A stretch of DNA of 64,000 nt. It comes from Methanomassiliicoccaceae archaeon (GTDB taxonomy: Archaea > Thermoplasmatota > Thermoplasmata > Methanomassiliicoccales > Methanomassiliicoccaceae). The stretch is from assembly GCA_040776945.1 (NCBI GenBank), contig JAXGZN010000002.1:448001-512000 (forward strand), written 5' to 3'. Positions 2,863-60,406 of this stretch are shown one piece after another. Position numbers and translations under genes: made by a program. Below the pieces are notes generated by a model. That model was given only the letters and a program-made list of their open reading frames with translations, was not told the DNA's origin and did not search any database. Numbering within the stretch: position 1 is the stretch's first letter; the number at the start of each line of letters is the position of its first letter.

Positions 2863-2877
2863 TGGATGTATCATCCA
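2863..2877. promoter_or_regulatory. palindromic operator TGGATG-TAT-CATCCA upstream of cbiT
   Basis: Perfect inverted repeat between a minus-strand TATA-like tract (~2881-2889) and the start codon; the motif recurs at four other promoters. Confidence 0.75.
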
Positions 2878-3010
2878 ACTTATATTTAAGATGAAAATAG
2901 CATCCAACTGCATCCCATAGAGGACAGAACGGTCCGGTGGTTGATGACGGCCAGGCATGATCCTGTTCGATGGCTCCGGCCGGTTCTTTAGGGCAATTAG
3001 GGGATCGCAG

Positions 3011-3841
3011 CTATCGGACCGGCCTAGTTCCTGCGGTCTCCCTTTCCAGAAGGTCCAGGGCCTCCTCCATGGTAGTGGGGACCTCGAAATCACGGCCGCT
3101 GCGGGCCTTCCATTCGGTCATAAGCCGAGGAATGGACGGAAGCTCCAGGTTGGCCTCCGCCAAGATGTCCGGACGGCCCATTAGGCCACGGAGGTCCCCA
3201 TCATAGAGGACGGTCCGCTTCAGCACTATGACCCGCCTCGTAAGCTCGAACGCCACAGTGAGGTCATGGGTGGCCAGGACGATGCTCTTGTCGAGCGAGC
3301 GCAGAACGTCCACCAGCGCCCTCCGGCTCACCGGGTCCAGATTAGCGGTCGGCTCGTCCAGGAGGTAGATCTCCGGGTCCATGGCCAGCAGGCCGGCGAT
3401 GGCTATGCGCTTCTTCTCCCCGAAGCTAAGGTGGTGAGGCACTCTCTCCGCGTACTCCGTCACCCCGGCCAGCGCCATGCTCCTTTCCACTCTCCTGCGC
3501 ACCTCCCGCTCCTCGAGCCTCATGTTGATCGGCCCGAAGGCAACATCGTCCCAAACCCGGGGCATGAAGATCTGGTCGTCAGGGTCCTGGAAGAGCAGGC
3601 CGGCCTTCATGGTGGCCTGTTGCGCGGTCCTCTTATCCACCTTTATCCCGGCAACCTCCAGCTCCCCCTCGGTAGGCAGATAGAGCGAGTCCAGCATGTG
3701 CAGCAGCGTGCTCTTTCCGGCCCCGTTGGGGCCGACCAGCGACACGCGCTCACCATAGCCGATGGTAATATTGACATCGTCCAGAGCGCGCGTGCCGTCC
3801 GAATATCGGTAGCCGACCTTCCTAAGCTTCAGAGCATCCAC
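3011..3841 (-). CDS. cbiO: ECF Co/Ni transporter ATPase (CbiO/NikO)
   Basis: Walker A GPNGAGKST, FQDPDDQ, LSFGEKKR, DEPT. Confidence 0.88.
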   Translation of the reverse strand: MDALKLRKVGYRYSDGTRALDDVNITIGYGERVSLVGPNGAGKSTLLHMLDSLYLPTEGELEVAGIKVDKRTAQQATMKAGLLFQDPDDQIFMPRVWDDVAFGPINMRLEEREVRRRVERSMALAGVTEYAERVPHHLSFGEKKRIAIAGLLAMDPEIYLLDEPTANLDPVSRRALVDVLRSLDKSIVLATHDLTVAFELTRRVIVLKRTVLYDGDLRGLMGRPDILAEANLELPSIPRLMTEWKARSGRDFEVPTTMEEALDLLERETAGTRPVR

Positions 3842-4563
3842 TGGACAACCCCCAATTGAATTGACAGGATGATAGTTATGACAGACGCGAACGCGGCCAC
3901 ATATGCCAGGTCCCTGGGCCTGGCCGATAGGCCTCGGAGAGTGTGGATCTCGCCTTGGAACCCTCTCGATAAAAGGCCGTTGTGAGTCCTCTTAGAGCGT
4001 TCGTATGAACGGACAAGTACCATCCCCCCGGTGAAGGAGATGGTCTGAAATACGTCCTTCGAGAGCAGGCTGCCCTTGAGAGAGAAGCCCCGCGACCTCC
4101 TGGCCTTGTTCATAAGCTCCAGCTCCTCCAGGATGACGAAGATGTACCGGTAGGTGAACAAAAGGAGCGCGCAGAAGACATATGGGACGCGGAACCATCT
4201 TAGTGCCTTCAGGACGTCGAAGAAAGGAGTGGTGGTGACGAGCAGGAGCAGAGAGATCACCGAAGCCGAGACCCTTAGTGCCATGGCCAGGGCGGGCTGG
4301 GGACCTGAGGTGAACAACATGGCCAATGACGTTACTGCTATGAACGGAAGGGCTAGAGAGAAGACCCTAAGGAAATGCAGGACCGGCAGCCGGGAGATGG
4401 CGAGCAGAGCCAGAACGAAGAACAAGGCCACCATAAGGGCTCTCAGGTCCTTCATGAACGAGAGGGCGGCCACCAGCGCGACGGTGGAGGCGAGCTTAAT
4501 GCGCGGATCGAAGCCATAGAGGGTGCATGACCGGCTATATCGATCTATCTCTATGGTCTCCAT
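3829..4563 (-). CDS. cbiQ: ECF Co/Ni transporter T component (CbiQ/NikQ)
   Basis: DPRIKL, FTYRYIF, ARRSRG and SRGF motifs; hydrophobic. Confidence 0.88.
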   Translation of the reverse strand: METIEIDRYSRSCTLYGFDPRIKLASTVALVAALSFMKDLRALMVALFFVLALLAISRLPVLHFLRVFSLALPFIAVTSLAMLFTSGPQPALAMALRVSASVISLLLLVTTTPFFDVLKALRWFRVPYVFCALLLFTYRYIFVILEELELMNKARRSRGFSLKGSLLSKDVFQTISFTGGMVLVRSYERSKRTHNGLLSRGFQGEIHTLRGLSARPRDLAYVAAFASVITIILSIQLGVVQWML

Positions 4564-4651
4564 GGTTCTCTCCCCAAGATCGTCCCGACCTGAACTCGGC
4601 AGTAAAATGGGAATGAAAAGGGTTTATTGAACTCTTCGCCCGACAGGCCCT

Positions 4652-4933
4652 TCAGGCCTTTATGGACTTCCTGAGCATGACCAGGCCATACACGACGAGC
4701 AGGGTGACGAAGAACCCGACGATCCCCATCAGAAGGGAGCTGAAGTAATTGGAGCCATAGTCCAAGGGAGCGGTCCAGACGGGCTCGCTCTCCTCGCCGG
4801 ACCCGTGCTCCTCCAGCGTCTTGTCCAGTCCGTCGGGCACACCGTCCGACACCAGGAAGAATCCGACAAGCCCGACGGCGAACAGCAGCAGGATCCCGAC
4901 AGAAGCGATGATGTATCGGCGGTCCACGTTCAC
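4652..4933 (-). CDS. PDGLE-domain membrane protein (NikN/CbiN-like)
   Basis: Two TM segments flanking PDGLD; GTG start overlaps the stop of cbiM (C-terminal part of track ORF 4652..5533). Confidence 0.8.
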   Translation of the reverse strand: MNVDRRYIIASVGILLLFAVGLVGFFLVSDGVPDGLDKTLEEHGSGEESEPVWTAPLDYGSNYFSSLLMGIVGFFVTLLVVYGLVMLRKSIKA

Positions 4934-5580
4934 GCCCCCGCAGGCTTGAGGTTCAGTTCCAGCATCTCCGGCGAGACCTTGGCCAGGAAGAGCACCACTC
5001 CGGTAGTGACGATGGCCTCGCCGACACCGATCAGGGCGTGGTATCCCATCATGGCCGGGAACGCAAGCGCGCCAGTGATCCCGTACGTCCCATCTGAGAT
5101 GGAATAGCTTAAGGCCAGCTGGGCCGCGCACACCGTGGCCGCAATGAACACCGCGGCCCACGCCGCTACCGGCGTGCCCAGGGTGCGGTTCTTTCCGAAG
5201 AGCATCATCACCCCATAGGTCACCAGGGGCGCGATGATCGCCATGTTCAGTATGTTGAGGCCCAGCGAGGTGATCCCGCCATCGCCGAAAACAAGGCATT
5301 GGATGGTCAGGATGGCGGTGATTATCAACATGGCCGCGTACGGCCCCAGCAGTATGGTCGCCAACGCGGCCCCGATAAGATGGCCGGTGGTCCCCCCGCC
5401 TATTGGAAAGTTCAACATCTGGGCCACGAAAATGCCGGCGGCCAATATGGCCATCATGGGCATCGTTCTTTCGTCCAACCGCTTGCCTAGCTTCCAGAAC
5501 ATCAGACCCAGCCCGATGAGGGCCAAGATCCAACCGGCGATCCAGAGCTCGGGCGCCATTATTCCGTCCGCAATATGCAT
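4930..5580 (-). CDS. cbiM: ECF Co/Ni substrate-binding S component (CbiM/NikM)
   Basis: N-terminal MHIADG, GTTGHLIG, FGDGGITSLG. Confidence 0.88.
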   Translation of the reverse strand: MHIADGIMAPELWIAGWILALIGLGLMFWKLGKRLDERTMPMMAILAAGIFVAQMLNFPIGGGTTGHLIGAALATILLGPYAAMLIITAILTIQCLVFGDGGITSLGLNILNMAIIAPLVTYGVMMLFGKNRTLGTPVAAWAAVFIAATVCAAQLALSYSISDGTYGITGALAFPAMMGYHALIGVGEAIVTTGVVLFLAKVSPEMLELNLKPAGA

Positions 5581-5596
5581 GAGCAACCCCTTACCC

Positions 5597-5623
5597 TTAT
5601 AACGAATAATTCTTTCGTGCTAC
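5597..5623. promoter_or_regulatory. possible NikR-like operator TTATAAC-N13-GTGCTAC
   Basis: Imperfect inverted repeat with a 13-bp spacer and inner ACGAA/TTCGT symmetry, overlapping the probable TATA of the Ni/Co transporter. Confidence 0.35.
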
Positions 5624-5737
5624 GCAATCAGTCCCATTGTATAAATCCCTTTAGCAACAAAACCCCCGCGAGCGGGGCTTTTCGAACACGGGGAGAACGC
5701 GATAGAGCTTTTACCGCCGCGCGCGCTCCTCATCCTC

Positions 5738-6316
5738 ATGAAGGTCATCGCGTTCAACGGAAGCCCGAGGAAGAACGGGAACACCAACCGGGCGCTGGAA
5801 GTGGTCCTCGAGGAACTGGCCGCGGAAGGGTTCGAAACCGAACTGGTGCAGATGGGAAGCGAGGAGGTCGCCCCGTGCCAGGCGTGCGGGGAATGCGGCA
5901 GGAAGAAGGACCGCAGGTGCAAGAGGGAGGAGGACAAGGTCAACGAGTGGATAGAGCGCATGGCCGAAGCGGACGGCATTATAATCGGCTCGCCCGTGTA
6001 CTTCGGCAGCATGAGCGCACAGACCAAGGCGTTCATCGACCGCGTCGGCTATGTCAGCCGCGCAAATGGCGACCTGTTCAAGCGCAAGGTCGGGGCCTCA
6101 GTGGCAGTGAACCGCAGGGCAGGGGCCTTGGCGGCCTTCCAGGAGATGAACAACTTCTTCCTCATCGGGCAGATGATCGTCATCGGCTCATCATATTGGA
6201 ACGTGGCCACCGCCCTCCGGCGCGGGGACATCGAGAACGATGATGAAGGCATCACCACCATGCGTGACCTCGGCAGGAACATGGCATGGGTGCTCAAGCG
6301 GCTCACCTCTCCCTGA
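5738..6316 (+). CDS. iron-sulfur flavoprotein / multimeric flavodoxin (Isf-like)
   Basis: NGSPRKNGNT, CxxCxxC-x7-C, GSPVYF. Confidence 0.88.
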   Translation: MKVIAFNGSPRKNGNTNRALEVVLEELAAEGFETELVQMGSEEVAPCQACGECGRKKDRRCKREEDKVNEWIERMAEADGIIIGSPVYFGSMSAQTKAFIDRVGYVSRANGDLFKRKVGASVAVNRRAGALAAFQEMNNFFLIGQMIVIGSSYWNVATALRRGDIENDDEGITTMRDLGRNMAWVLKRLTSP

Positions 6317-6317
6317 G

Positions 6318-7004
6318 CTATTTCCGGTCCAGGGCGGCCATCCGCAGCAGAGGCAGCATGTTCATGAGCACCTTTCCCTCGGCCTTGCGGAGATGCTCCA
6401 TGGCCGTCGACCTCGACAGCCCGGTGAGCTTGGCCATATCATCCGCGGAGATCCGGGCAGGCGTGTCGTAGTAGCCGCGCTCGATCGCCAGCGTCAGTAT
6501 ATCGGACTGCTTGGCGGTGAGGCCCTCCATCAAGCCCTCGATGGGCACGAGCATCCCCTCGGTCAGGGACGGCAGGCCGACCTGGCGCATGGATTCCAGG
6601 CTGATCGTCCCTCCGTTCTCCTGGACCAGGCTGACCAGCCTCAGTATGTTGCTCTTGCTCCAAGAGAACACACGATACCTCTCCCACCCGCCCTCGGCAA
6701 CTGTGGGCTGGGCGCACCAGCAATCCGACCGAGATATGAGCGAGGTGACCGATCCAGGGTCCACATCGCGGTCCCGTATGACGATCTCCAATCCGCCGCA
6801 TTGGCGGATGACAGTGGCATAAGGAATAAAGGTCGCCAGGTCCTCCTCGAACTTCTCAAGGTCCTCCGTGGACCTGCTGGTGACCACGGCAACATGGGTG
6901 CTCGCATTGTCCCAGGAGCTGATCCGGAGGCCTGGATATCTTTCAGTGAGCATGCAGTACGGGCAGTTGTGATGGATGTCCAATCTGGCCTCGTAGTTGG
7001 GCAT
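6318..7004 (-). CDS. HTH-10 (bacterio-opsin activator-like) transcription regulator
   Basis: C-terminal LTAKQ...GYYDTPAR...EHLRKAE; start codon uncertain. Confidence 0.85.
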   Translation of the reverse strand: MPNYEARLDIHHNCPYCMLTERYPGLRISSWDNASTHVAVVTSRSTEDLEKFEEDLATFIPYATVIRQCGGLEIVIRDRDVDPGSVTSLISRSDCWCAQPTVAEGGWERYRVFSWSKSNILRLVSLVQENGGTISLESMRQVGLPSLTEGMLVPIEGLMEGLTAKQSDILTLAIERGYYDTPARISADDMAKLTGLSRSTAMEHLRKAEGKVLMNMLPLLRMAALDRK

Positions 7005-7419
7005 CGGTGCTCGAACGCCGTGCCTGAAGATAATCATTCCTGCGCCCCTTCGTGTCAATCTATGCCATGCTAATGGCTCTCGAAGACTGCCGTCCTACGG
7101 CGGTGCAATTGATATCGCCACCTTGCGCGCTATGATCGTTCGATCGAAATGATATCCAACGCATCACTGCAAGAGACCAAAGTGCAGGTTCAAGATCAAG
7201 AACTGTCGCTCTATGTCCGGACCGAGCTCAGAGGCATTCCCTTAGCAATAATGGGAGGCCACGAGCCCGATAGGTCCATGATGTATCGTCATGGGCCTCG
7301 CCACGGACCCGTGCGCCAGGCGGGACGATGGCTTTACCACGGGCTGATCGTTCTACTTGGATAGAATACATAAGGACCTGACAAAACCCTTTAATGGCCC
7401 CTGTCCATTGACCGGGAGG

Positions 7420-9136: not shown

Positions 9137-9137
9137 A

Positions 9138-10370: not shown

Positions 10371-10386
10371 CTTTTTACCTCATAGT

Positions 10387-10401
10387 TGGATTATTCATCC
10401 A
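10387..10401. promoter_or_regulatory. palindromic operator TGGATT-ATT-CATCCA upstream of cobO
   Basis: GTTGGAT...ATCCAAC symmetry between a TATA-like TTTTTA (~10372) and the ATG. Confidence 0.7.
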
Positions 10402-10414
10402 ACAGTGAACTAAC

Positions 10415-10957
10415 ATGAGCGGAAGGAACATTCGCGAGGACCTCGGCCTGATCCACGTATATACCGGGAACGGCAAAGGCAAGACCACAGCGGCGCTGGG
10501 GTTGGCCTTGAGGGCCATGGGCAACGACCTCAATGTCGTCATGGTGCAGTTCATGAAGAGCGACCAGCACTATGGCGAATATCGGATCTCAAGATCATTG
10601 CCGCATTTCACCCTCCTCCCGATGGGGCGCGACTGCCTGGTGAACGAAAAAAAGATCGCCCAGGCCGACATCGACGCTGCCGAGGCCGCCCTCGCGAAAT
10701 GTGAGGAACTGCTCCGATCGGGAAAGTATGACATGCTGATCATGGACGAGATCAATGTCAGCATGCACTTCGGACTGGTCAAGGTCGCTGATGTAGTTGG
10801 ATTGCTCAGGTCCCGGCCGCCCCGCGTAGAGGTGGTCCTTACCGGACGCTACGCGCCGCCCGAGATAGTGGAGATCGCGGACCTGGTCACCGAGATGAGA
10901 TGCCTCAAGCACCCATATGAGAAAGGGGTGCAGGCCCGGGCGGGCATCGAGAGGTGA
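10415..10957 (+). CDS. cobO: cob(I)yrinic acid a,c-diamide adenosyltransferase
   Basis: YTGNGKGKTTAA, VQFMK, LTGR, KHPYEKG motifs. Confidence 0.93.
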   Translation: MSGRNIREDLGLIHVYTGNGKGKTTAALGLALRAMGNDLNVVMVQFMKSDQHYGEYRISRSLPHFTLLPMGRDCLVNEKKIAQADIDAAEAALAKCEELLRSGKYDMLIMDEINVSMHFGLVKVADVVGLLRSRPPRVEVVLTGRYAPPEIVEIADLVTEMRCLKHPYEKGVQARAGIER

Positions 10958-11516
10958 CCGCGGTACCGGCCAAGGCCTTGATCGCGAGGACATATGCATG
11001 ATCTCGGCACCGGGCCACTTTCCAGTTCGGTCCGTCCGATCCCATCGCCGCATCATCGAGGTGACTGTCGCCTCTGCGGGGACCGCGGCCGTCTTATGCC
11101 TTGGCGCGCGCTCGGCGTTCGAGAGGCTAGGCACGGCAGTGTCCCCGACCGTGATGGCATGTGCGGCGTTCTAAATGCTCCATGTGGAGAACGCCTTCAG
11201 GCCGGCGAAGGTCGGACGCAGGAAAGGGCGCGGCCCTATTTTGGCCGTTCGGCCCACCGCGACGGCTTTTCCATCATCAAGCGGATGTGATTCCTGAGGC
11301 AGCCGCGCCTCCGACCTTGGCCATCAGGACGTTCTTGACCCTCGCCATGCGCTACCTGCTGCGATAGTGCCCCATGAGAACAATGCCTATTCAATGCATT
11401 CGCCCTGCATGCAGAGAGAATATCCGGGAGATGCGCGCCCCGAATCTCATGATGAACGCATCCGGGATGCAGGGCCGCCGTCAAACGCTATTAACGGGCG
11501 GCGCCAATCAGGTAGC

Positions 11517-41198: not shown

Positions 41199-41341
41199 CG
41201 GATACGAGGTTCGTAGGCACGAGCAAAGGGGCCTAAACCCCGTTAACTGGCATCTAGGGCCGGCCCTTTTCGATGCAACATTGTAACAATCGTTTTAGAA
41301 AAAACTTTTGTCAGGCTTGAAATTTTAACCGGCGTTAAACA

Positions 41342-41356
41342 TGGATGGTCCATCCA
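41342..41356. promoter_or_regulatory. palindromic operator TGGATG-GTC-CATCCA upstream of the corrinoid protein gene
   Basis: Perfect 8-bp arms (ATGGATGG/CCATCCAT) just upstream of BRE/TATA-like AAAAGATTTTAATA. Confidence 0.75.
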
Positions 41357-41430
41357 TCCATAAAAGATTTTAATACGAGGCAACCATATCCAAATTCAAA
41401 CTCTTTGTCATTTGAGGAGGGAATCAAAGT

Positions 41431-42069
41431 ATGAGCAACGAGATACTTGACAAGTTAGCTGATGTCGTAGTGAAGGGGAAGATCAAGGAAGCCAAGCCCC
41501 TTGCAGAGCAGGCCTTGGCCGCTGGGATCGACCCCAAGGTAATCATCTTCGACAGCTTGAGCAAGGCTATGGGAGTTGTAGGCCAGAAGTACGAGAGCAA
41601 GCAGTACTTCCTGCCCCAGGTCCTTCTGTCCGCTCAGACCATGTACCAGGCCCTGGATGTCACCCTGCCCAAGCTGAAGGTTGACGCCAACGCTATTCCT
41701 GGAAAGGTCGTCATCGCTGTTGTTGAGGGCGATGTGCATGATATCGGAAAGAACATCGTGAAGGCCATGCTGACCGGTGCCGGCCTGACATTGTTCGACA
41801 TGGGCCGTGACGTCCCCGTCAAGAACCTGGTCGAGAAGGCCAAGTCCGAGGGCGCCCAGATCCTTGCCACCTCCACCCTGATGACCCCCACCCTGGCGGG
41901 CATGAAGGAGATCGAGAGGATCCTGAAGGAAGAGAACCTCAAGGGCAAGGTCAAGACCGTCATCGGCGGTGGTGCGACCTCCAAGGAGTTCTCCAACCAG
42001 ATCGGGGCCAACGGCTGGGCTTACGACGCTGTCGAGGCCGTGGCTGTTGTTCAGGGCCTGCTGAAGTAA
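41431..42069 (+). CDS. methyltransferase cognate corrinoid protein (MtaC/MtmC-like)
   Basis: EGDVHDIGKN B12 motif, STLMT, IGGG, FLPQVL cap domain; strong RBS. Confidence 0.92.
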   Translation: MSNEILDKLADVVVKGKIKEAKPLAEQALAAGIDPKVIIFDSLSKAMGVVGQKYESKQYFLPQVLLSAQTMYQALDVTLPKLKVDANAIPGKVVIAVVEGDVHDIGKNIVKAMLTGAGLTLFDMGRDVPVKNLVEKAKSEGAQILATSTLMTPTLAGMKEIERILKEENLKGKVKTVIGGGATSKEFSNQIGANGWAYDAVEAVAVVQGLLK

Positions 42070-50958: not shown

Positions 50959-51068
50959 GATAGGACCGGACCGGCCTAGACAGGTGACCTTGATATATTA
51001 TTATTATTGTGGCCATGGGCGGAGGATGGTTCGAGAGATTTATTATCGGAGGAGGTCATGGACATCTC

Positions 51069-52271
51069 ATGATTTTGGGATCCCGGCCCAAGCATTTGAC
51101 CTCCGACGGGGAGCGGGCGGTCGACCCTAAGGAGACCCTGGAAAGGATAGAGCCTTTGATGAAGAAGGCAGGCATTACCAGACTAGCTGACATCACAGAC
51201 CTGGATCGTATAGGGATACCTGTTTTCTCTGCGATCCGCCCTTCCGCCGAGAGCGGTGCGATCTCGGTCTACAACGGGAAAGGCATGACCAAGGAAGAGG
51301 CCATGGTCTCCGCCCTGATGGAAGGGTTCGAGAGATATTGCGCCGAGGTAAGAGGGTTCAATATCGTACGCAAGGGCGTAGTGGAGTTCATGGAGACCCA
51401 TAATGCCATCGATCCTTTGGACCTCATACTCACGCCGGCGTCAGCATTCCACCTGACGAAGCAGCCGATAGGCTGGGTCAAGGGCTTTGACCTTAACAGC
51501 ATGGAGGAGACCTGGGTCCCTGCAAGCGCGGTATTCCATCCCTACGTGTCAAGGCTCGACCTTGCCCTGTTCCGAACCTCCACAAACGGTCTCGCCTCTG
51601 GTAACAATTACGAGGAAGCGATCCTCCATGGCCTATGCGAGGTCATCGAGAGGGACGCATGGTCCTTGGCCGAAGGCCACCGAAAGATACGAGGTGATGT
51701 CGTCGCCCCGGATGGCGGAAATGTCAGTAAGATCATGGAGATGTTCACGTCCAAGGGGATCGAGATACACCTCAAGTACCTGACCACTGACATAGGGGTT
51801 CCCACCATTGCTGCGGCCGCTGATGATGTAGTTATGCAGGACCCTGCCCTGCTGACCCTTGGGATAGGCACGCATCTCGATCCTGAGGTGGCGGCAATCA
51901 AAGCGCTCCTTGAGGTCGCTCAAAGCAGGCTCACTCAGATCCATGGAGCAAGGGAGGACACTGTCCACGGGGAACATTCGAGGAAGCTCGGATACGAGCG
52001 AATGAAGCGGATCAACAAGATGTGGCTTAGCGATACGGGCCCAAAGGTGAAGCTCGATGAGATGCCGGTTCTGGACACCGATGACGTCTTCGATGACCTT
52101 CAGGTGGTCCGAAAGCAGCTGAACTCCCGTGGTTTCAAGAGCACAGTGATCGTCGACCTTACAAGAAAGGATCTTGGCATCCCGGTCGTAAGGGTTATCG
52201 TGCCTGGGCTGGAGGTCTTTGCCATAGATGAGGACCGGGTAGGGCCGAGAATGATGGGAGGTAGGGTCTGA
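51069..52271 (+). CDS. ycaO: YcaO McrA-glycine thioamidation protein (methanogenesis marker 1)
   Basis: SVYNGKG, STNGLASGN, EVIERDA, EVAQSR. Confidence 0.93.
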   Translation: MILGSRPKHLTSDGERAVDPKETLERIEPLMKKAGITRLADITDLDRIGIPVFSAIRPSAESGAISVYNGKGMTKEEAMVSALMEGFERYCAEVRGFNIVRKGVVEFMETHNAIDPLDLILTPASAFHLTKQPIGWVKGFDLNSMEETWVPASAVFHPYVSRLDLALFRTSTNGLASGNNYEEAILHGLCEVIERDAWSLAEGHRKIRGDVVAPDGGNVSKIMEMFTSKGIEIHLKYLTTDIGVPTIAAAADDVVMQDPALLTLGIGTHLDPEVAAIKALLEVAQSRLTQIHGAREDTVHGEHSRKLGYERMKRINKMWLSDTGPKVKLDEMPVLDTDDVFDDLQVVRKQLNSRGFKSTVIVDLTRKDLGIPVVRVIVPGLEVFAIDEDRVGPRMMGGRV

Positions 52272-52912
52272 GGCCTGTAATCTATGTCGGCCCAAGCTTG
52301 GAGCATGAGGCCGCCATCGAGCTGCTCGACGCTGACTATCGGCCTCCGGTAAAGAGAGGGGACCTTGCCGCTTTGCCGGCCGATATCAGGACAGTTGGCA
52401 TAATCGACGGCGTGCTCCTGACCGATGCCGCCGTCGGCCACAGAGAGATACTAACGCTCCTGAGGAGAGGGGTCAAGGTACTGGGCGGCGGCAGCATGGG
52501 GGCCCTCAGGGCGGCCGAGCTCTCTGACATGGGGATGATCGGCGTAGGAAGGATATTCAAAGAATATTCTTCCGGCCGGATCAATGGCGATGACGAGGTC
52601 GTCCTGGCGTATGATCCTTTCAGTCTGAGGCCCCTGTCGGAACCGCTCATCAATCTCAGATTGAACATAGAGGCGGCCGCCGGTAGGGGCATTATCAGCG
52701 CGGAAGCCTCGTCAAGGCTCATAGATGCTCTAAAAAGGACGTATTATCCAAAAAGGACCTTTGAACGTCTCGATAAAATCGCGAGGGAATTATTGGAAAA
52801 AACCGAGTTCGAGGCATTTTCGTTTTTCTTGAAAAACGAGAGAATGGACCATAAGCGAAATGACGCGATTTTGCTAATAAAGGCCGTTAAGGATGAACCT
52901 CGTTTTTTTTGA
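52268..52912 (+). CDS. tfuA: TfuA thioamidation partner (probable CTG start)
   Basis: PVKRGDL, IIDG, SMGALRAAEL, DDEV; the conserved N-terminus RPVIYVGPSL extends to a CTG at 52268. Confidence 0.9.
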   Translation: MRPVIYVGPSLEHEAAIELLDADYRPPVKRGDLAALPADIRTVGIIDGVLLTDAAVGHREILTLLRRGVKVLGGGSMGALRAAELSDMGMIGVGRIFKEYSSGRINGDDEVVLAYDPFSLRPLSEPLINLRLNIEAAAGRGIISAEASSRLIDALKRTYYPKRTFERLDKIARELLEKTEFEAFSFFLKNERMDHKRNDAILLIKAVKDEPRFF

Positions 52913-52984
52913 AAAATTAACTCATGTTAAGAAAATTGCAGGAGGTCTGGCCGAACCTCAAAAATCACGATTGTTTACGTTGGT

Positions 52985-52999
52985 TGGATTATCCATCCA
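52985..52999. promoter_or_regulatory. palindromic operator TGGATT-ATC-CATCCA upstream of the mcr promoter
   Basis: Ends 8 nt before TATA box TTTATAT (53008-53014). Confidence 0.72.
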
Positions 53000-53157
53000 G
53001 CACCATGTTTATATCTCTCTCTCTACTTACAGGGCAATGACAGGGGATTTGGTTTTCATCAGAAGGGAGGCACTCTCGGACGATGAAGGCCGTTCAACTT
53101 CTTACCCCGGCCGGGGGGACTCTGCCGGGCGAGGAAAAAATGATTGGAGGTAGAAAT

Positions 53158-54477
53158 TTGGCGAAATACAAGGACAAAATAGACTTGTATGACGACAGGG
53201 GTAAGCTTATTGAGAAGGATGTGCCCCTTGAAGCGATCAGCCCTCTGAACAACAACGCAATTAAGCGGATCGCATCCTTGGCCAAGAGGACCATCGCCGT
53301 GGACATGTCTGGACTTGAGAGGAGCCTCAAGACCGGGCGCGTCGGCGGCGGGTACATCAAGGGCAAGGAGATAGACGCTGCCGTTGTGGCCAATGCGGAT
53401 AAGTTGGCAAAGAGGGTCAAGGACATCCTGAAGGTCGACAAGGACGATGACACTGATGTCAAGGTCATCATGGACGGGAAGAGAATGATCGTCATGGTCC
53501 CGACCAACCGCGTCGACGCTGGTGTAGAGTACACCACTGGATTCACCGCAGCTGCCGCTGCGCTTACCCAGGCCGTCATCGATGAGTTCAACGTCGACAT
53601 GTTCCATGCGAACATGGTAAAGGGTGCTGTTTGGGGCAGATATCCCCAAAGCTTGAACTTCCTTGGATCCAACCTGAAGTCCATCCTGGAGGTTCCGCAG
53701 GTCAACGAGGGAGCCGGATATGCTCTCAGAAACATCATGGCAAACCATCTGGTCGCCTTGTCTGGTAAGAACTCGGTCAACGCTGCCGCGCTGTCCTCTA
53801 TCTTTGAGCAGACGGCGATGTTCGAGATGGGCGACGCCATCGGACCCTTCGAGAGGTACCACCTGCTGGGCCTGGCCTACCAAGGACTGAACGCGAACAA
53901 CATCGTCCTTGACCTGGTCAAGGAGAACGGCAAGACCGGAACCGTCGGTACCGTTGTCGAGTCCATCGTGGGCCGCGCCATTGAGGACAAGGTCATCAAG
54001 GTCAAGGAGAAGCTGCCCTCTGGATACAAGGTGTACACCACCAACGACTTCCCGCTGTGGAACGCCTACGCCGCCGCTGGTATGCTTGCGGCCAACATGG
54101 TGAACATCGGTGCTGCCAGGGCTTCCCAGGCCGTGCCTGCGACGACCCTGTACTACAACGACCTTATCGAGCACGAGACCGGCCTGCCTGGAGTCGACTT
54201 CGGCCGCGCCATGGGTGTCTGCGTCGGTATGTCCTTCTTCAGCCACTCTATCTACGGCGGTGGCGGACCTGGACTGTTCCACGGCAACCACGTCGTGACC
54301 AAGCACTCCAAGGGATTCGTCATCCCGTGCATCGCTGCGGCCTGTTCCCTGGATGCAGGGACTCAGTACTTCTCACCCGAGAGCACCTCTTCCCTTGTGA
54401 GGGATGTGTTCGGTGAAATACCTGAGTTCAAGGCTCCGTTGAAGGCGATTGGCAAGGAGGCCAAGAAACTGAAGTAA
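53158..54477 (+). CDS. mcrB: methyl-coenzyme M reductase beta subunit
   Basis: [31 protein letters not shown]; RBS GGAGG plus TTG. Confidence 0.98.
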
Positions 54478-54497
54478 GAGGTGTGTGGTTAAGCTTG

Positions 54498-54920
54498 ATG
54501 ACAAGTACTAATGCCCCTGAGGCTGTCCCGCTGCCTGAGATCCTGATCTTTCCAAACAGGCTCCTCAAGGCCGAGACCACCGAGAAGCTCCTTAACAGGA
54601 TCTACGAGGTTCCCCATGTGAGGCAGGTCAACATCGCTGGCGAAGCTCTACCGGCGGTGCTGAGCTCCGGCCCCAACAAGGGACTGCCCAACGAACACCC
54701 TGAACGCAGGGTGATAACAGTGAAAGGCGAGCAGGTCGAACTTCGCCTGCTGGTAGGAAGAGTGTTCGTCGAGATCGATGACATCGACCATGTCCAGCGA
54801 GCGCTCGAGGAAATCGATGAGATATGCATCGAGATCCTCCCGTTCGGGTTCAACCTGGAAGTGGGCAGGTACTCGAAATACAAGCCGACCGTCACCGATT
54901 ACAAGAAATGCAAGAGGTAA
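54498..54920 (+). CDS. mcrD: MCR operon protein D
   Basis: [17 protein letters not shown]; lies between mcrB and mcrG. Confidence 0.95.
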
Positions 54921-54925
54921 TAATT

Positions 54926-55699
54926 ATGGCATACCAAGCTCAGTACTATCCTGGCAACAGCCAGATCGCCAAGAACAGGCGCCGGTACATGGACCCCTCC
55001 GAAAAGCTGAAGAAGCTCAGGGACGTGGCCATGGACGACGTCGTAAGGATTCTGGGCCACAGGGCTCCCGGAGAAGACTACAAGAGCATCCACCCCCCAC
55101 TGGAGGAGGGCAACGAGCCGGATGACTACGTCCGCAAGTTGGTCACCCCCATCGAGGGCGCCAAGAAGGGCGACAGGATCAGGTACGTTCAGTTTACCGA
55201 TTCGATCTACTTCGCCCCCATGGTCCCCTATCTGAGGGCCTGGATGTACATGACCAGGATGAGAGGCTTCGACACCGGAACCCTTTCTGGAAGACAGATC
55301 ATTGAGATGAGGGAGAGGGACCTTGAGAAGGCATCCAAGGAACTCATCGACAATGAGACCTTCGACCCTGCCAAGACCGGTATCAGGGGTGCGACCGTGC
55401 ACGGGCACGCTTGCAGGCTGGACGAGAACGGGCTGATGTTCGACGCCTGGCAGAGATACCGCTGGAACGCTAAGAAGGGCGAGGTCGAGTATGTTAAGGA
55501 CCAGGTCGCTCTTCCGCTGGACAAGCCCATCTCCGTGGGCAAGCCCCTGCCGGACGCTGAACTCAAAAAGATGACCACCATCTTCAGGGTAGATGGAGTT
55601 GACATGATTGACGACCCCGAGGTCATGGCCATGAACCTGAGGATACACAGGCTGAGGACCCTTTGCGGATTCCAGGCCTTCGCCCTTAAGGGGGAGTAA
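54926..55699 (+). CDS. mcrG: methyl-coenzyme M reductase gamma subunit
   Basis: [23 protein letters not shown]. Confidence 0.98.
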
Positions 55700-55703
55700 A
55701 ACT

Positions 55704-57368
55704 ATGGCAAAAGAAAAGGACAAGTTGTTCCTGGATGCGATGAAGAAGAAGTTCAAGGAGGCCCCTACCGCGGTCAACACCAACTACTATACCTTTGGTG
55801 GCTGGAAGCAGTCCAAGAGGAAGAGGGAGTGGGTTGAGCAGGCCAACAAGATCGCCAAGGCGCGCGGCATACCGATGATGAACCAGGACATCGGTGTACC
55901 TCTGGGCCAGCGTGTGCTTATGCCTTATCAGCTTTCGCACACCGACATATACGCTGAGGCGGACGACCTGCACTTCATGAACAACGCTGCCATGCAGCAG
56001 TGCTGGGACGATATACGCAGGACCGTCATCTCCGGTATGGACACCGCGCACGCCGTCATCGAGAAGAGGCTGGGCAAGGAGGTCACTCCCGAGACCATCA
56101 ACTTCTATCTCGAGACCGTGAACCACGCGATGCCCGGCGGAGCCGTCGTGCAGGAGCACATGGCCGAGGTCAGCCCGGGTCTTACCGCGGACTGCTACGT
56201 GAAGGTCTTCTCCGGTGACGACGAGCTCCTCGACCAGATCGACAAGAGGTTCGTCATCGACATCAACAAGGAGTTCCCCAAGGACCAGGCGAAGCAGCTT
56301 AAGGAGGCCATCGGAAAGTCCCTTTGGCAGAAGGTCGCTTGCCCGACCCTCGTCGGCCGCGTTTGCGACGGCGGTACCATGTCCCGGTGGAGCGCCATGC
56401 AGATCTCGATGTCCTTCATCAGCGCCTACAGACTGGCCGCTGGTGAGGCCGCCATCGCTGACTTCGCGTTCGCCGCCAAGCACGCTTCCGTCGTAGAGAT
56501 GGGAACCATGATGCCCGCTAGGCGCGCAAGGGGCCCCAACGAGCCCGGTGGAATTCCCTTCGGGTTCCTGGCCGACATGTCCCAGTCTTTCCGTGTAAAG
56601 CCTGACGACCCCGCCAGGGCTGCTCTGGAGGTCGTTGCACTGGGCGCTGTCGTGAACGACCAGATCTATCTGGGCTCGTACATGTCCGGCGGAGTCGGCT
56701 TCACCCAGTACGCCACCGCGGCCTACACCGACGACATCCTGGAGGACTACACCTACTGGGCCGTCGACCACATCAAGTCCAAGTATGGCGGGCTGGTCAA
56801 GAGCAAGCCGTCCATGGACCTGATGGAGAAGCTCGGCACGGAGGTCAACACCTACGCTCTCGAGATGTATGAGAAGTACCCGGCCGCTATGGAGGCCCAC
56901 TTCGGTGGCTCCCAGCGTGCGACCGTCGCAGCCGCCGCCACTGGTATCGCTTGCGCGATGGCCACCGGCAACGCCGACTTCGGTGTCAACGGCTGGTACC
57001 TCTCCATGCTCCAGCACAAGGAAAGATGGGGACGCCTCGGGTTCTACGGGTTCGACCTGCAGGACCAGTGCGGTGCCGCCAACTCTCTGTCCTACAGGAG
57101 CGACGAGGGTCTGCCCTTCGAGCTAAGGGGTCCGAACTACCCGAACTACGCCATGAACGTCGGTCACCTGTCCGGCTATGGCGGCATCGCTTGCGCCGCT
57201 CACGTGGCCCGCGGCGACGCCTTCGCCTGCAGCCCGCTGATCAAGGTCGCGTTCGCCGACAAGAACCTGCCGTTCGACTTCGCCAACATCACGAAGGAGT
57301 TCGGCCGTGGCGCTCTCAGGGAGTTCATGCCCGCTGGCGAAAGGTCCCTGATCATCCCCGCCCAGTGA
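55704..57368 (+). CDS. mcrA: methyl-coenzyme M reductase alpha subunit
   Basis: [51 protein letters not shown]. Confidence 0.99.
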
Positions 57369-57372
57369 TCTC

Positions 57373-57651
57373 ATGATCGTAGGTGACATCGTCAAGTACC
57401 GCAACACCGGAACTGTGGGCAAAGTAGAGGACATCATGGAGGAGGGAAAGGTGACCTGGGTTCTCCTGGACACCTCCAAGCTCTACTATGACTCCTCTAC
57501 CCTTGACCCAGCATCGGCCGATGAGTACGGCGGTGCCGCCGATCGAGAGAAGGACCAGAGGGAGCAGATCGAGGACATCGAACGGCTCCGCCAACAAATG
57601 GCGGAGATAGCCGAAGAGATGTCCAAGATATCTCCTTCCGGTGCGGGTTAG
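57373..57651 (+). CDS. DUF2098-like small methanogen protein
   Basis: GDIVKYRNTGTVGKV...W..LD...LYY. Confidence 0.8.
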   Translation: MIVGDIVKYRNTGTVGKVEDIMEEGKVTWVLLDTSKLYYDSSTLDPASADEYGGAADREKDQREQIEDIERLRQQMAEIAEEMSKISPSGAG

Positions 57652-57692
57652 GACCTTCGGTCAACGACCAAACCCCTTCCTTTCACCTTTTT
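57652..57692 (+). terminator. putative mcr operon terminator
   Basis: Small hairpin followed by AAACCCC and a pyrimidine/T tract. Confidence 0.55.
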
Positions 57693-58043
57693 ATGTCCTT
57701 TGGATGGGCGCAGCCATCGACGCAAACGCCCTAGTAATAGGAAAAAATCGAAAATCTGCAAATCCAAGCGATCGGACCTATCTCCTATAGATCGGACCGC
57801 TCCTTGTTCAGGTAGTTAGATCGTTTCTTCCAAACCATCCTGGCTTGGTCACATGTTCCAGGCACCAGCCCGATCCTGAGCATAACCGCGGGTCAGAACC
57901 CTACGGGATCGTATATGCGGTCTAAGGGCGGCTAAAAAATATCGGGCAATCCAGGGCCATTTGGGATGCCCTCCTTCGTTCGAAAATCCTCCGTTCAGGA
58001 ACATATATTCGACCGAACGGCCTGGTGGGGACCTGCCTTTAGA

Positions 58044-58601
58044 TCAAAGGAGATCCTCATCGCAGTCGAACCCTATAAGGATGGAAGCGAGCTTAGGGTC
58101 GTCCTGATAGCCGTGCATCTCCCTTAGCATCATATCCGCTGGCGCGGATGGAGAGCAAGAGACGACGTTCTTGAACCCTAGGTTCTCGACCTCAGGGAAG
58201 GATACTGGTGGCATAATGAAGAACTCCCTGCTGCCTCCTTTCCGCTCAGGATAGACCACGAACTCCTCCGAGAGCCACATGATCTCCTCCTTTACTGTCT
58301 CTAGGAACTTTTTCTTGGACGACGGCAGGACCTCCTCCCCCAGAACGATCCCTGTGTTGGTAAGGAGCATGACCGTAGGCTCCGGCGGCGGCCGAAAGCT
58401 TGATTTCTTGATTATGCACACTACATATTTTCGGCTGAGACATTCCTCGACCCCTTTGTTGATGACCGGTATCCCCAGGACCGCCTTGATCTCCTTCTCG
58501 ATATCCCAGATCCTGCTCCTGCAACCGTTGTTCAGGACGAAGGCATAGACCGTGCCCCTCAATCCTTTAAGCAGTTCCAAGATCTCGTTCATATCCGCCA
58601 T
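58044..58601 (-). CDS. hypothetical protein, paralog of 62837..63406
   Basis: Shared motifs N.GV.E.L.R, G.VLGE.V.P, LSE.F, GFD. Confidence 0.78.
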   Translation of the reverse strand: MADMNEILELLKGLRGTVYAFVLNNGCRSRIWDIEKEIKAVLGIPVINKGVEECLSRKYVVCIIKKSSFRPPPEPTVMLLTNTGIVLGEEVLPSSKKKFLETVKEEIMWLSEEFVVYPERKGGSREFFIMPPVSFPEVENLGFKNVVSCSPSAPADMMLREMHGYQDDPKLASILIGFDCDEDLL

Positions 58602-58715
58602 GCTCAGCGAAATCAGGTGAGAATTGATAAACCTATGCCAGTTCCCATTTGCTCAGCCTCTAAGGTACAGATTTCCTGGACAAGTATTATTACTCGCTCT
58701 GTCGGTCATATCGGC

Positions 58716-59015
58716 ATGACCCTCGCGCTTATCGCCAAGCAGCAGCCGTCAGCGATCAACAAGCTGTTCGCCCTGAAGAACGAGATCTTTAAGGAAGGGG
58801 CCTTGTCCGTCAAGGACAAGGAACTGATCGCAATATCATTATCTCTCGTCATGAAGTGCGAAACCTGCTTGGAAACCCATGCCCAGGCCGCGAAGCAACT
58901 GGGGGCGACCATAGACGAGATCAGGGAGGCGATGCTGGTGGCTATGTATCTAGTAGGCCCCTCGGCGATGATCTGGACCCCGGTCATCGATGAGATCCTC
59001 GGAGGTAAGCTCTAG
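58716..59015 (+). CDS. carboxymuconolactone decarboxylase/AhpD family protein
   Basis: GALSVKDKELIA, CETCLETH, GATIDEI. Confidence 0.85.
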   Translation: MTLALIAKQQPSAINKLFALKNEIFKEGALSVKDKELIAISLSLVMKCETCLETHAQAAKQLGATIDEIREAMLVAMYLVGPSAMIWTPVIDEILGGKL

Positions 59016-59016
59016 C

Positions 59017-59358
59017 TCAGCATTCGAACTCGAACCGGACCGATCTCTTCAATCCAAGACCTGAGGCAGCCTCGGCCGACTTGATGATCGCCGAAGGGAT
59101 AGGGCATGCAGAATGGGCAAGCACCTTTCCGCAGGCCTCGTACACAGGATTGGCAGAGAACGGCATCCTCAAGGCATCGAAAGGGCTCATCTCTTCGGAC
59201 AGCTGTTCCTTGACCTTCTTGACATAGGGGCAATCGGTCTCGAAGTCGAACCGGATGCTGCCATCCTCGTACATCGCGATGATCTTGGTCTTGAACCTAC
59301 AGACCCCAGGGTCCACCGAGAGGCAGACCTTGTCGGGCTCTCCGTTCTCCACGGTCAT
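59017..59358 (-). CDS. small Cys-containing hypothetical protein (DUF6951-like)
   Basis: PGVCRFKT, TDCP, HSACPIPSAIIK. Confidence 0.75.
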   Translation of the reverse strand: MTVENGEPDKVCLSVDPGVCRFKTKIIAMYEDGSIRFDFETDCPYVKKVKEQLSEEMSPFDALRMPFSANPVYEACGKVLAHSACPIPSAIIKSAEAASGLGLKRSVRFEFEC

Positions 59359-59410
59359 ATAGGGACGGAGCAAAGCGTGGAAGATAACACTTTCTCAATA
59401 TCGTTCCGCT

Positions 59411-60385
59411 TCAGATGTTCTGCTCCTTTCGGGCACGTGCGACGACCTCGAACATGCCCCCCTTCGTGATATCGACTATGCCGAACACCGCCACCGCCTC
59501 GTTATTCCTGATGATGGGGACCACGACCACCGGGACCCCTCGATAAGGGCCGTAAGGAGAAATCTTCCTTACCGCCGCGCTCCGCTTGAGCGCTTCCTCA
59601 AGCACTGGCCCTGTGAAATCGGTATCGACGATCTCACCATCCTCGCATCGGACCCCGCGATGGTTCTTGCTCCGCATAGTGACCGGCAGACGGCCCACTA
59701 GCTCATGCACCGCTAGAGCAAGGCACCGGAGGTCCTGTGCTTCGGTGTCCGCGCTTATAAGGCTGTTAGGGGTACAATCCCTCCAGCAAGGCCGAGGAGA
59801 ATCTCCCAGCGCCAAGGCGGCGGTGACCGCTCCCTTTTCTGCTATATCGTAAGAACTTGCGGTGCCGATGATGACCACATCGTTCTCTTCCAGTGTGAAC
59901 GCCGACCTAATGGGCGCCAACAACGATTGGTCAGGGTCCGAATAGTCCCCTGGGAACAGAAGCTTACCGCCGTTGACCACCAAGGTCGTGGCTCCCATGG
60001 CGCCCACCCGAACGGCCTCGTCCCTCTGCTCGTAACCTGTCCCGATGCGGTCGGCCATGCCCTTAACGTGGACCGCACAGTCCTGATCGGAGATCGTGAG
60101 GCCATCGATCCTCACGGGGCTTACCATTATCCCTGAGCTTCTGAAGTTCTTGACCCCTCTTTCGGTGAGCACCGCGCCTAGATTCGTGTTCTCAACAGAG
60201 CCTTCGCGTATCATCTTGTCAAGTATTGTCCTGGTGCTGCCTTCTCCGATCCCTAAAAGATGGGAAAGGGTCTTTCGTCCGATAGGTCCTCTACTATTAA
60301 TGACAGAGTAGGTCTTCCAAACATGGAACAGTGTGAACTTGGGATTCGGCCCATCACCTGAGTAAGCTTGGAACTTCAAGACCAT
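59411..60385 (-). CDS. putative transcription regulator: wHTH + DUF4443-like + DUF2111 domains
   Basis: N-terminal GPIGRKTLSHLLGIGEGSTRTIL HTH; middle EQRDEAVRVGAMGATT; C-terminal LPVTMRS...FTGPVLEE...GVPVVVVPI. Confidence 0.8.
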   Translation of the reverse strand: MVLKFQAYSGDGPNPKFTLFHVWKTYSVINSRGPIGRKTLSHLLGIGEGSTRTILDKMIREGSVENTNLGAVLTERGVKNFRSSGIMVSPVRIDGLTISDQDCAVHVKGMADRIGTGYEQRDEAVRVGAMGATTLVVNGGKLLFPGDYSDPDQSLLAPIRSAFTLEENDVVIIGTASSYDIAEKGAVTAALALGDSPRPCWRDCTPNSLISADTEAQDLRCLALAVHELVGRLPVTMRSKNHRGVRCEDGEIVDTDFTGPVLEEALKRSAAVRKISPYGPYRGVPVVVVPIIRNNEAVAVFGIVDITKGGMFEVVARARKEQNI

Positions 60386-60391
60386 GCTTGC

Positions 60392-60406
60392 TGGATGGAG
60401 CATCCA
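60392..60406. promoter_or_regulatory. palindromic operator TGGATG-GAG-CATCCA in the regulator's own promoter
   Basis: Perfect match between a minus-strand TATA-like ATATTTA (60410-60416) and the ATG at 60385. Confidence 0.75.

Follow-up and report, generated by a model that had tools for sequence, protein, structure and literature searches.

A fifteen-base palindrome, TGGAT-N5-ATCCA, stands in five promoters of a 64,000-nucleotide stretch of archaeal DNA (G000:C2:448001-512000, hereafter the window), and we propose that it represents two related operators, served by two winged-helix regulators of the PH0730 type, throughout the order Methanomassiliicoccales. We put the probability of this explanation as a whole at about 0.6. 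Sites of the first class (class A) precede genes for cobamide synthesis and uptake. Sites of the second (class B) precede the mcrBDGA operon for methyl-coenzyme M reductase (MCR), two genes for corrinoid proteins and the gene of a presumed regulator, in which a winged helix-turn-helix (wHTH) domain is followed by the domains DUF4443 and DUF2111. The source genome, G000, measures 2.17 Mb in two contigs (C1 and C2) and has 59.6% G+C. Proteins at least 80% identical to the regulator encoded in the window are labelled Methanomassiliicoccus sp. or Methanomassiliicoccales in their sources.

A first-pass annotation of the window had listed the five 15-mers and judged them too numerous for chance; on rechecking, all coordinates and sequences were correct, and the judgement holds. 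The palindrome (pattern TGGATNNNNNATCCA) is expected 0.12 times, as the mean of dinucleotide-preserving shuffles of the window, and in the same kind of shuffles a stricter pattern, TGGATKNNNCATCCA, has a mean of 0.00 matches; the observed number was reached in none of 100 shuffles. Because tolerance of one mismatch adds just two further sites in the window, the site set is sharply bounded. The whole genome contains 14 exact copies, where base composition predicts 1.16 (Poisson P 3e-11). Of these copies, twelve are intergenic, intergenic DNA making up 12.6% of the genome (binomial P 1e-9) by calls that rest on a crude custom gene caller. Copy C1:346458 overlaps just the first bases of an open reading frame (ORF) whose start was probably called at too distant an upstream position, and copy C2:747793 lies inside an ORF. 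All five window sites are non-coding, as had been claimed; the fifth overlaps just an upstream in-frame ATG (60403) of the longest ORF. The motif is thus promoter-specific genome-wide and does not reach an equal frequency in coding DNA. When all 5-mer inverted repeats with spacers of 3-7 nt are ranked, the palindrome is the most frequent intergenic dyad, with the exception of the dyad of a clustered regularly interspaced short palindromic repeat (CRISPR). Across the order, each of the 41 genomes searched has the palindrome in excess, with 4-26 copies per genome against 0-2 for the reversed control.

One might suppose that the palindrome is no regulator site at all, being a product of chance, a dispersed repeat, or a target of restriction or modification in AT-richer intergenic DNA. 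Intergenic DNA is indeed AT-richer, which favours words that contain A and T, and among the 14 genome copies one is inside an ORF and one in a gene-poor stretch. This supposition has to face, however, the shuffles and the reversed control given above, a fixed distance to the TATA box and the retention of the site at orthologous promoters in families whose surroundings have diverged. Further, the sequence common to the copies ends at about 21 bp, and nothing is shared beyond it. We consider it effectively refuted, with next to no probability left, and regard the palindrome as almost certainly a real cis-regulatory element, that is, an operator family.

Two side observations belong to the genome scan. 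The exact copy at G000 C1:453845 (locus L003) stands in about 1.3 kb of DNA in which no gene was called. The CRISPR array mentioned occupies G000 C1:19744-27622, outside the window, and consists of 108 repeats spaced by about 60-73 nt; its repeat dyad, ACGTTC-N4-GAACGT, tops the genome-wide dyad count.

The sites very probably fall into two distinct classes. Class A has the form (G)T-TGGAT-N5-ATCCA-A(C), and the sites before cobamide genes read (A)GT-TGGAT-N5-ATCCA-AC. Class B is in most promoters the 19-mer TGGATGGA-N3-TCCATCCA, and reads TGGAT-N5-ATCCA-TCC(A), or GGA-TGGAT on the other side. Sites 1 and 2 of the window (before cbiT and cobO) belong to class A, and sites 3 to 5 (before a corrinoid protein gene, mcrB and the regulator gene) to class B. 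With up to one mismatch, GTTGGAT-N5-ATCCAAC finds 10 sites in G000 and TGGATGGA-N3-TCCATCCA finds 4, all of them intergenic. The bases next to the core distinguish the classes. Among 15 symmetrised class A sites, positions -1/+1 are T/A in 87% and positions -2/+2 are G/C in 67%. In class B, position -1 is A in 95% of 21 regulator promoters, and position +1 is T in 100% of 19 corrinoid protein promoters, 71% of 21 mcrB promoters and 67% of the regulator promoters.

The classes also differ in their position within the promoter. A TATA-like box had been reported near every window site, and we find it at a distance of 2-12 nt. Class A sites lie in the interval between TATA box and start codon at cbiT (4 nt before the ATG), cobO, cobT, cbiM and the proximal of two sites before a Zn-dependent dehydrogenase gene; at a btuF-like and a sirC-like gene they abut a downstream TATA box. 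These are positions from which an archaeal repressor would block TBP and TFB or the polymerase, and we infer a geometry of repression. Class B sites at mcrB and at both corrinoid protein genes end 7-9 nt upstream of the TATA box, just past the TFB recognition element (BRE). Archaeal factors usually help to recruit TBP and TFB from a position just upstream of BRE and TATA box, and by this analogy the position suggests activation. At the regulator's own promoter, the class B site fills the gap between TATA box and start, which suggests autorepression. Since the two classes differ in flanks, promoter geometry and, as described below, evolutionary behaviour, the first-pass proposal that one transcription factor co-regulates all five genes was not borne out.

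The targets form a coherent set of cobamide synthesis and uptake, corrinoid proteins and MCR, in agreement with the first-pass annotation, whose gene names in the window (cbi operon, cobO, corrinoid protein, mcrBDGA and wHTH-DUF2111) were confirmed by Pfam and NCBIfam scans. The same scans, applied to genes flanking the other sites, identify further cobamide-supply targets elsewhere in G000: the archaeal cobT (TIGR00303, 405.8 bits), cbiM (TIGR00123), a Peripla_BP_2 (btuF-like) protein of an ATP-binding cassette (ABC) transporter and a CysG-N/SirC-like precorrin-2 dehydrogenase. A methanogenesis target outside the window is a second corrinoid protein gene, followed by a URO-D/MtaA-like methyltransferase gene (C1:405260), with a class B site. 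No cobalamin riboswitch (RF00174) and no other Rfam family reaches threshold in the regulon loci, where just a tRNA was found (in the window and loci L001, L002, L004, L005, L006 and L008).

Comparison of orthologous promoters across the order shows that the palindrome is conserved in them. The regulator gene carries the motif, with at most one mismatch, at its 5' end in 26 of 30 loci; of the four exceptions, two start at the edge of a contig and lack upstream DNA. Its promoter has a nearly invariant layout: TATA box, GGA, TGGAT-N5-ATCCA, about 9 bases, and ATG-GTN-CTN-AAR. The alignment of 28 orthologous promoters places the conserved start of the regulator at 60385, and not at the ATG within the palindrome (60403). 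At mcrB, a class B operator is found in 25 of 36 genomes, 8-9 nt upstream of a conserved TATA box; it is degenerate in G010, reduced to the left half in the four genomes of genus g3, and missing from the three genomes of family f7 and from three regulator-less genomes. The corrinoid protein gene of the window ("corrinoid B") has a site in 20 of 30 orthologues, or 20 of the 26 genomes that bear DUF2111. Class A sites are retained similarly: 7 of the 11 sites in G009 precede orthologues of cbiM, cobO (13 nt before the gene), the sirC-like gene, cbiT, the btuF-like gene and the Zn-dehydrogenase gene (two sites), and G030 has sites before the btuF-like gene (two) and the Zn-dehydrogenase gene.

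Loss of the class B sites together with the DUF2111 gene is our main ground for regarding the DUF2111 protein as the likely binder of class B, and some other factor as that of class A. A six-frame family search did not find DUF2111 in G004, G005 and G009, which are of the same genus and each 99% complete, or in G006 (67% complete), and a protein search of these genomes recovers just a shorter paralogue. Their mcrB promoters keep the TATA box and the leader, yet the operator is present in 0 of 3, compared to 25 of 33 DUF2111-bearing genomes. At corrinoid B, the operator is present in 0 of 4 and the rest of the promoter is conserved; before atwA, nothing operator-like is seen in the DUF2111-less genomes. 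The 15-mer itself is kept in 16, 14 and 11 copies in G004, G005 and G009, respectively, those of G009 being class A sites at cobamide genes. On the strength of this pattern we consider it likely that the DUF2111 protein binds class B.

Alternatively, the wHTH-DUF4443-DUF2111 protein might bind all TGGAT-N5-ATCCA sites, the flanks just tuning affinity. All sites do have 10 core bases and the spacing in common, and the regulator gene is autoregulated across the order, to judge by the motif at its own promoter. Genome G067 combines class A-like sites with the fused protein only, and the mcrB site of G000 fits both 19-mers. A single binder is nevertheless highly improbable, because the DUF2111-less genomes retain the copies just counted, seven of those in G009 at cobamide-target orthologues, and because flanks are opposite at -1/+1 and promoter geometry is different.

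The candidate binder of class B consists of three domains. In the 330-aa ORF, the winged helix matches PF22167 with 33.0 bits (cut-off 30.2), the following DUF4443 domain matches PF14544 with 94.3 bits (cut-off 27), and the DUF2111 domain matches PF09884 over positions 1-83 of 83 with 112.1 bits (cut-off 27). An AlphaFold model based on a 32-row alignment has a mean predicted local distance difference test (pLDDT) value of 82.9 and places wHTH at residues 19-83, DUF4443 at 86-195 and, behind a disordered linker, DUF2111 at 216-322. The wHTH and DUF4443 domains together correspond to PH0730 (PDB 2p8t) both in sequence (phmmer E 9.3e-12) and in fold (Foldseek E 9.1e-11, template modelling score TMt 0.77, root mean square deviation 3.0, 188 columns); beyond PH0730, a fold search with the whole model returned just IclR and BirA matches of low template modelling (TM) score. 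DUF2111 modelled alone reaches pLDDT 90.4, and its order of elements, alpha-3beta-alpha-3beta-alpha, agrees with sensor folds of the GAF/PAS/Cache type. When two copies of the regulator are modelled together, the score is 0.54 compared to 0.00 for the best of three controls; among proteins of solved structure, 20 of 30 pairs and 1 of 23 single chains come up to the mark for this score. At least 50% of contacts are common to the runs, the partner pLDDT is 75 or more, and the interface is symmetric and lies wholly in DUF2111 (residues 208-231, 271, 287-291 and 301-307). The model supports a homodimer, and DUF2111 is likely a module for sensing and dimerisation.

No enzyme family of the kind fused to the wHTH in RbkR was found in the regulator by Pfam or NCBIfam, and a B12-binding domain (PF02310/PF02607, as in the CarH/AerR type) is, according to Pfam, absent from both regulators and found just in the target corrinoid proteins. 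A conserved cysteine of DUF2111 was considered as a redox or metal site and rejected, for C247 is invariant in the fused proteins and not conserved in stand-alone DUF2111.

DUF2111 is a small family, with 85 representatives at 50% identity among 1.84 billion proteins, whose members are either about 320 aa (fused) or 110-140 aa long (stand-alone). Of 301 genomes sampled from the phylum, 64 contain it, and every one of these belongs to this order; in a control set of 14 named genomes, it is found in Methanocaldococcus jannaschii and Methanosarcina acetivorans only. In Methanothermococcus, a stand-alone DUF2111 gene lies directly upstream of methanogenesis marker 5 (Mmp5), and the regulator gene of the window adjoins atwA-mcrC, 2 kb from mcrA. 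Through these neighbours, DUF2111 is linked by gene context to MCR activation; the available part of a recent preprint lists Mmp5 in an "MCR activation operon" (bioRxiv 10.64898/2026.03.18.712670).

For class A, the best candidate we can offer is the short paralogue of this regulator, a protein of 194 aa in G000 (C2:571477-572061) with a winged helix (32.7 bits) and DUF4443 (PF14544, 109.3 bits), that is, with exactly the architecture of PH0730. It is about 39% identical to the fused protein over wHTH and DUF4443, with very similar recognition regions, and it is present in 64 of 64 genomes of the order in one sample and in 40 of 41 in another. In five genomes from three families (G024, G026, G028, G035 and G039), its gene lies 75-280 nt upstream of a class A site which precedes the next gene. 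Judging from sequence and gene order, the chance that the short paralogue binds class A seems to us a little short of even.

Two other arrangements of the proteins deserve mention here. In the first, the short paralogue would be the DNA binder at both classes and the DUF2111 protein a heterodimer partner or co-regulator at class B promoters only. The two proteins do share wHTH and DUF4443, the short form is nearly universal in the order, and the core half-site is identical in both classes. In the homodimer model, however, the fused proteins join via DUF2111, which the short form lacks, and G067 keeps an autoregulatory class B-like site with the fused protein only, so that we find this arrangement very unlikely. 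In the second, class A would be bound by an unrelated regulator, the likeness of the cores would be due to convergence or site turnover, and the short paralogue would have another role. This is consistent with the absence of autoregulation of the short paralogue in G000, with the class A-like sites of G067, in which no short paralogue was found, and with the fact that outside the order the presence of DUF4443 does not predict motif enrichment. Yet identical core and spacing within one organism are most simply explained by paralogous DNA-binding domains, and the position of the short paralogue directly upstream of a class A-regulated gene in the five genomes named above also counts against it. 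We rate an unrelated regulator as unlikely.

Returning to the explanation that we prefer, we picture the process as follows. A dimer of the wHTH-DUF4443-DUF2111 protein would bind the class B sites. At mcrBDGA and the two corrinoid protein genes, where the site lies one BRE-length upstream of the TATA box, it would most likely help the assembly of the pre-initiation complex by recruitment of TBP and TFB, while at its own promoter it would block the polymerase and thereby repress its own gene. A second PH0730-type dimer, for which the wHTH-DUF4443 paralogue of about 195 aa is the leading candidate, would bind the class A sites, which overlap the TATA box and BRE or the start site at genes that serve to make, salvage or import cobamide, and would repress these genes, most plausibly when cobamide is sufficient. 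Such feedback control of cobamide supply by the class A binder would take the place of the bacterial B12 riboswitch.

A bolder version of this model can be imagined, in which the DUF2111 protein acts as the master switch for methyl-reducing methanogenesis across Methanomassiliicoccales. DUF2111 would then have been borrowed from the MCR-activation machinery and would read the state of MCR or its cofactors (for example free F430, redox- or ATP-dependent activation, or species of coenzyme M and coenzyme B), transcription of mcrBDGA and the corrinoid proteins would be coupled to that state, and the paralogous repressor would match cobamide supply to demand. We think this rather improbable. If true, it would amount to a two-tier, protein-based control circuit for tetrapyrrole cofactors that has no described counterpart in archaea.

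Several points weigh against the two-regulator explanation. The joint loss of DUF2111 and class B sites is a single event in one clade of one genus and counts once. The content of the regulon is not uniform, since family f7 (G029, G033 and G037) possesses the DUF2111 protein without the mcrB operator and genus g3 keeps just a half-site at mcrB. The classes overlap at the mcrB site of G000, the one site found with both 19-mers, with a single mismatch to each and a register shift of 2 nt. Since TGGA recurs at every fourth base, the exact centre of the class B dyad is ambiguous, and the readings 8-3-8 and 8-5-8 each fit some sites. Activation of mcrB is deduced from position, and a site abutting the BRE could also repress. 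The solved folds nearest to DUF2111 are GAF-, dCache- or PAS-like, with weak matches (E 2e-3 or worse, TMq 0.43-0.58). As to the short paralogue, neither family nor protein search found it in G067 (99% complete, 7 contigs), which has four or five class A-like sites; either the fused protein also uses class A, or another factor does, or the gene is unassembled. No class A site precedes the paralogue's own gene in G000. Beyond the order, no clear tie between the motif and DUF4443 is seen, with 1, 4, 7, 12 and 11 copies in five genomes that have the domain and 1, 7, 0, 4 and 4 in five without it, counts which neither support nor contradict the link between the short paralogue and class A. Generally, what is observed are the sites with their classes, positions and conservation, and the joint loss of class B sites and the DUF2111 gene; which protein binds where, whether it activates or represses, and what effector it would answer to are deduced from these.

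The sites of the window and the genes behind them are listed in Table 1.

Table 1. Candidate operators in the window, their putative targets and the neighbouring atwA-mcrC genes (window coordinates).
Feature	Position	Strand	Remarks
Site 1, class A operator ATTGGATGTATCATCCAAC	2861..2879 (core 2863-2877)		between TATA box 2880-2889 (minus strand) and cbiT start codon (2858)
cbiT-cbiL-cbiF-cbiG operon, cobamide ring synthesis (site 1 target)	142..2858	-	extends past window start
Site 2, class A operator GTTGGATTATTCATCCAAC, perfect 7-5-7 palindrome	10385..10403 (core 10387-10401)		between TATA-like box 10371-10378 and cobO start codon (10415)
cobO, ATP:corrinoid adenosyltransferase (site 2 target)	10415..10957	+	PF02572, 216.5 bits
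Site 3, class B operator TGGATGGT-CCA-TCCATCCA	41342..41360 (core 41342-41356)		7 nt upstream of TATA box 41368-41375
Methyltransferase-cognate corrinoid protein, corrinoid B (site 3 target)	41431..42069	+	B12-binding and B12-binding_2 domains
Site 4, class B operator TGGTTGGA-TTA-TCCATCCA	52981..52999 (core 52985-52999)		8 nt upstream of mcrB TATA box 53008-53015
mcrBDGA operon, methyl-coenzyme M reductase (site 4 target)	53083..57368	+	MCR_beta; TIGR03260, TIGR03259 and TIGR03256 above cut-off
Site 5, class B operator TGGATGGA-GCA-TCCATCCT	60392..60410 (core 60392-60406)		between TATA box 60410-60417 (minus strand) and regulator start codon (60385)
Regulator gene, wHTH (PH0730_N) + DUF4443 + DUF2111, 324 aa	59411..60385	-	candidate class B binder
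atwA (MCR component A2) and mcrC	60601..62834	+	divergent from regulator gene; TIGR03269 769 bits, TIGR03264 298 bits

Two of the identifications score under the NCBIfam cut-off. The CbiT-like methyltransferase scores 78.0 bits with the CbiT family, just below the cut-off of 78.3, and corrinoid B scores 191.8 bits with TIGR02370, under the cut-off of 215.3. The Pfam matches of the cbiT operon comprise a methyltransferase, two TP_methylase domains and CbiG_N/C. The atwA-mcrC genes, which were considered as class B targets for their divergent orientation to the regulator gene, were set aside: atwA has its own proximal TATA box (60577-60584), and this is kept in the operator-less genomes.

The mcr operon, the regulator gene and atwA-mcrC are parts of a 12-kb methanogenesis island, together with ycaO (methanogenesis marker 1, TIGR03266) and a tfuA-related gene; the latter two (51009-52912) lie directly upstream of the mcrB promoter and serve the formation of thioglycine in McrA. 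RNA contigs from four metatranscriptome studies begin in the mcr region at 53032 (one study) or at 53049-53051 (three studies) and continue through the operon, and none covers 52887-53031, a gap that is no evidence by itself. The 53032 start lies 24 nt away from the 5' edge of the mcrB TATA box (53008), and the contig starts agree with the assignment of the mcrB promoter, which we take as a weak hint of the transcription start. The mcrB leader (53032-53082, and loci L087-L116) contains a strongly conserved stretch, CAAGGGGAt/aC-GATTTTCATC ... GATGA, in nearly all of 30 genomes aligned by eye. It resembles a conserved hairpin of a 5' untranslated region, and the contigs of three metatranscriptome studies begin at its edge (53049-53051).

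In most genomes, the mcrB operator is preceded at a distance of about 4-10 nt by a second conserved element, CGATTGTT(T)A, which also stands upstream of the corrinoid protein and several regulator promoters. In the window it occurs at 52968-52977 (CGATTGTTTA) and 41285-41292 (AACAATCG); G000 has 19 copies of the 8-mer when both strands are counted, and 11 of these are intergenic. Another factor may bind to it. In the regulator promoters of family f7 (L179 and L183, in G029 and G033), we noticed TGGATAC-N5-GTATCCA, i.e. TGGAT-N9-ATCCA, which has the same half-sites placed 4 nt further apart.

A few further genes also carry class A or class A-like sites. The genes for the Zn-dependent dehydrogenase and a TrpD-like phosphoribosyltransferase (TIGR01245, 261 bits) are preceded by two class A sites 74 bp apart (L001:3461-5645, equal to G000 C1:346461-348645). 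This pair and its sites are kept in G009 and G030, and they are unexpected members of a cobamide regulon; they may act in the chemistry of the lower ligand or linker. In L052 (G024:C1:111950-116000), a gene at 2028-3950, just after the short paralogue and 4 nt downstream of a class A site, encodes a protein of 641 aa, whose best match in G000 (32% identity) is a protein with PQQ-like beta-propeller and PKD domains. It could, as a speculation, be a surface cobamide-binding protein. Finally, a family of proteins of about 440-495 aa without Pfam match, often found beside an ABC ATPase, has class A-like sites in G012 (L072, L077, L082, L083 and L086) and G067 (L162 and L165); its homologue in G000 (L174:1751-3235) has none.

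The closest worked-out parallel is RbkR, an archaeal wHTH regulator of riboflavin genes that replaces the bacterial flavin mononucleotide riboswitch (Rodionova et al. 2017, NAR, PMC5397151). According to the portion of that paper available to us, RbkR likewise controls an archaeal cofactor regulon through palindromic promoter sites, is autoregulated and was predicted by comparative genomics, and loci of Methanomassiliicoccus are included. Its wHTH is, however, fused to riboflavin kinase, where the window regulator has DUF4443 and DUF2111, and both motif and cofactor differ; in the same portion of the text, B12 and cobalamin have 0 occurrences. The class A gene set, with cbi/cob synthesis and cobalt and B12 uptake under one signal and presumably under feedback by the end product, is like that of the bacterial cobalamin riboswitch (RF00174) regulon, the difference being that the signal there is RNA in the leader and here promoter DNA. 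Class A sites precede cobalamin synthesis and transport genes in an archaeon, a feature expected of a B12 regulon of the "CBL-box" type. To our knowledge, no genome of Methanomassiliicoccales existed in 2003, when Rodionov et al. (J Biol Chem) reportedly predicted that box for a hypothetical B12 regulator in some archaea; class A may correspond to it.

On the side of the proteins, PH0730 of Pyrococcus horikoshii is a structural-genomics hypothetical protein that shares wHTH and DUF4443 with the window protein, which adds DUF2111. No function, operator or ligand is recorded for PH0730, and in the accessible text of the literature searched it is mentioned in a transcription-factor census only. 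SurR and TrmBL1 are archaeal dual-mode regulators, which activate from just upstream of BRE and TATA box and repress from over or downstream of the TATA box. They exemplify how one factor can do either according to the position of the site; there is no relation to them by sequence family. Bacterial regulators of the IclR type with wHTH and a GAF-like domain are similar in having an alpha/beta ligand-binding domain after the wHTH and in binding a palindrome as dimers, yet their fold matches reach a TM of just 0.18-0.24 overall and they too are unrelated by sequence family. Msr proteins and MreA of Methanosarcina are lineage-specific regulators of methyltransferase and corrinoid operons in methylotrophic methanogenesis. 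They have no Pfam domain in common with the window regulator beyond a generic wHTH, and in our case mcrBDGA itself carries a site. In the literature searched, which excluded supplementary files, we found nothing relevant on DUF2111, DUF4443, this motif or an mcr operator in this order, and, apart from the RbkR paper and the census, nothing on B12-responsive control or cobalamin regulons of archaea or on transcription-factor motifs of Methanomassiliicoccus. Circuits of a regulator and its operators are ordinary in themselves; the novelty lies in the families and operators involved, in the connection with MCR and in the division between two paralogous regulons.

Taken together, these results bear on a group of archaea that reduce methyl compounds with H2 in animal guts, digesters and wetlands. 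MCR is the enzyme that makes methane, and for this order no cis-element or factor that sets its level is described in the literature searched. The finding supplies a pair of short operators told apart by single bases, a pair of small candidate proteins from the uncharacterised families DUF4443 and DUF2111, and a natural knock-out clade. If our assumptions are true, class A would be the archaeal counterpart, missing so far, of the B12 riboswitch of bacteria, and class B would provide the first functional handle on DUF2111, a methanogen-only domain found beside MCR-activation genes. The sites permit prediction of the regulon in uncultured relatives, and the factor that binds at mcrBDGA would be a candidate lever on methane output.

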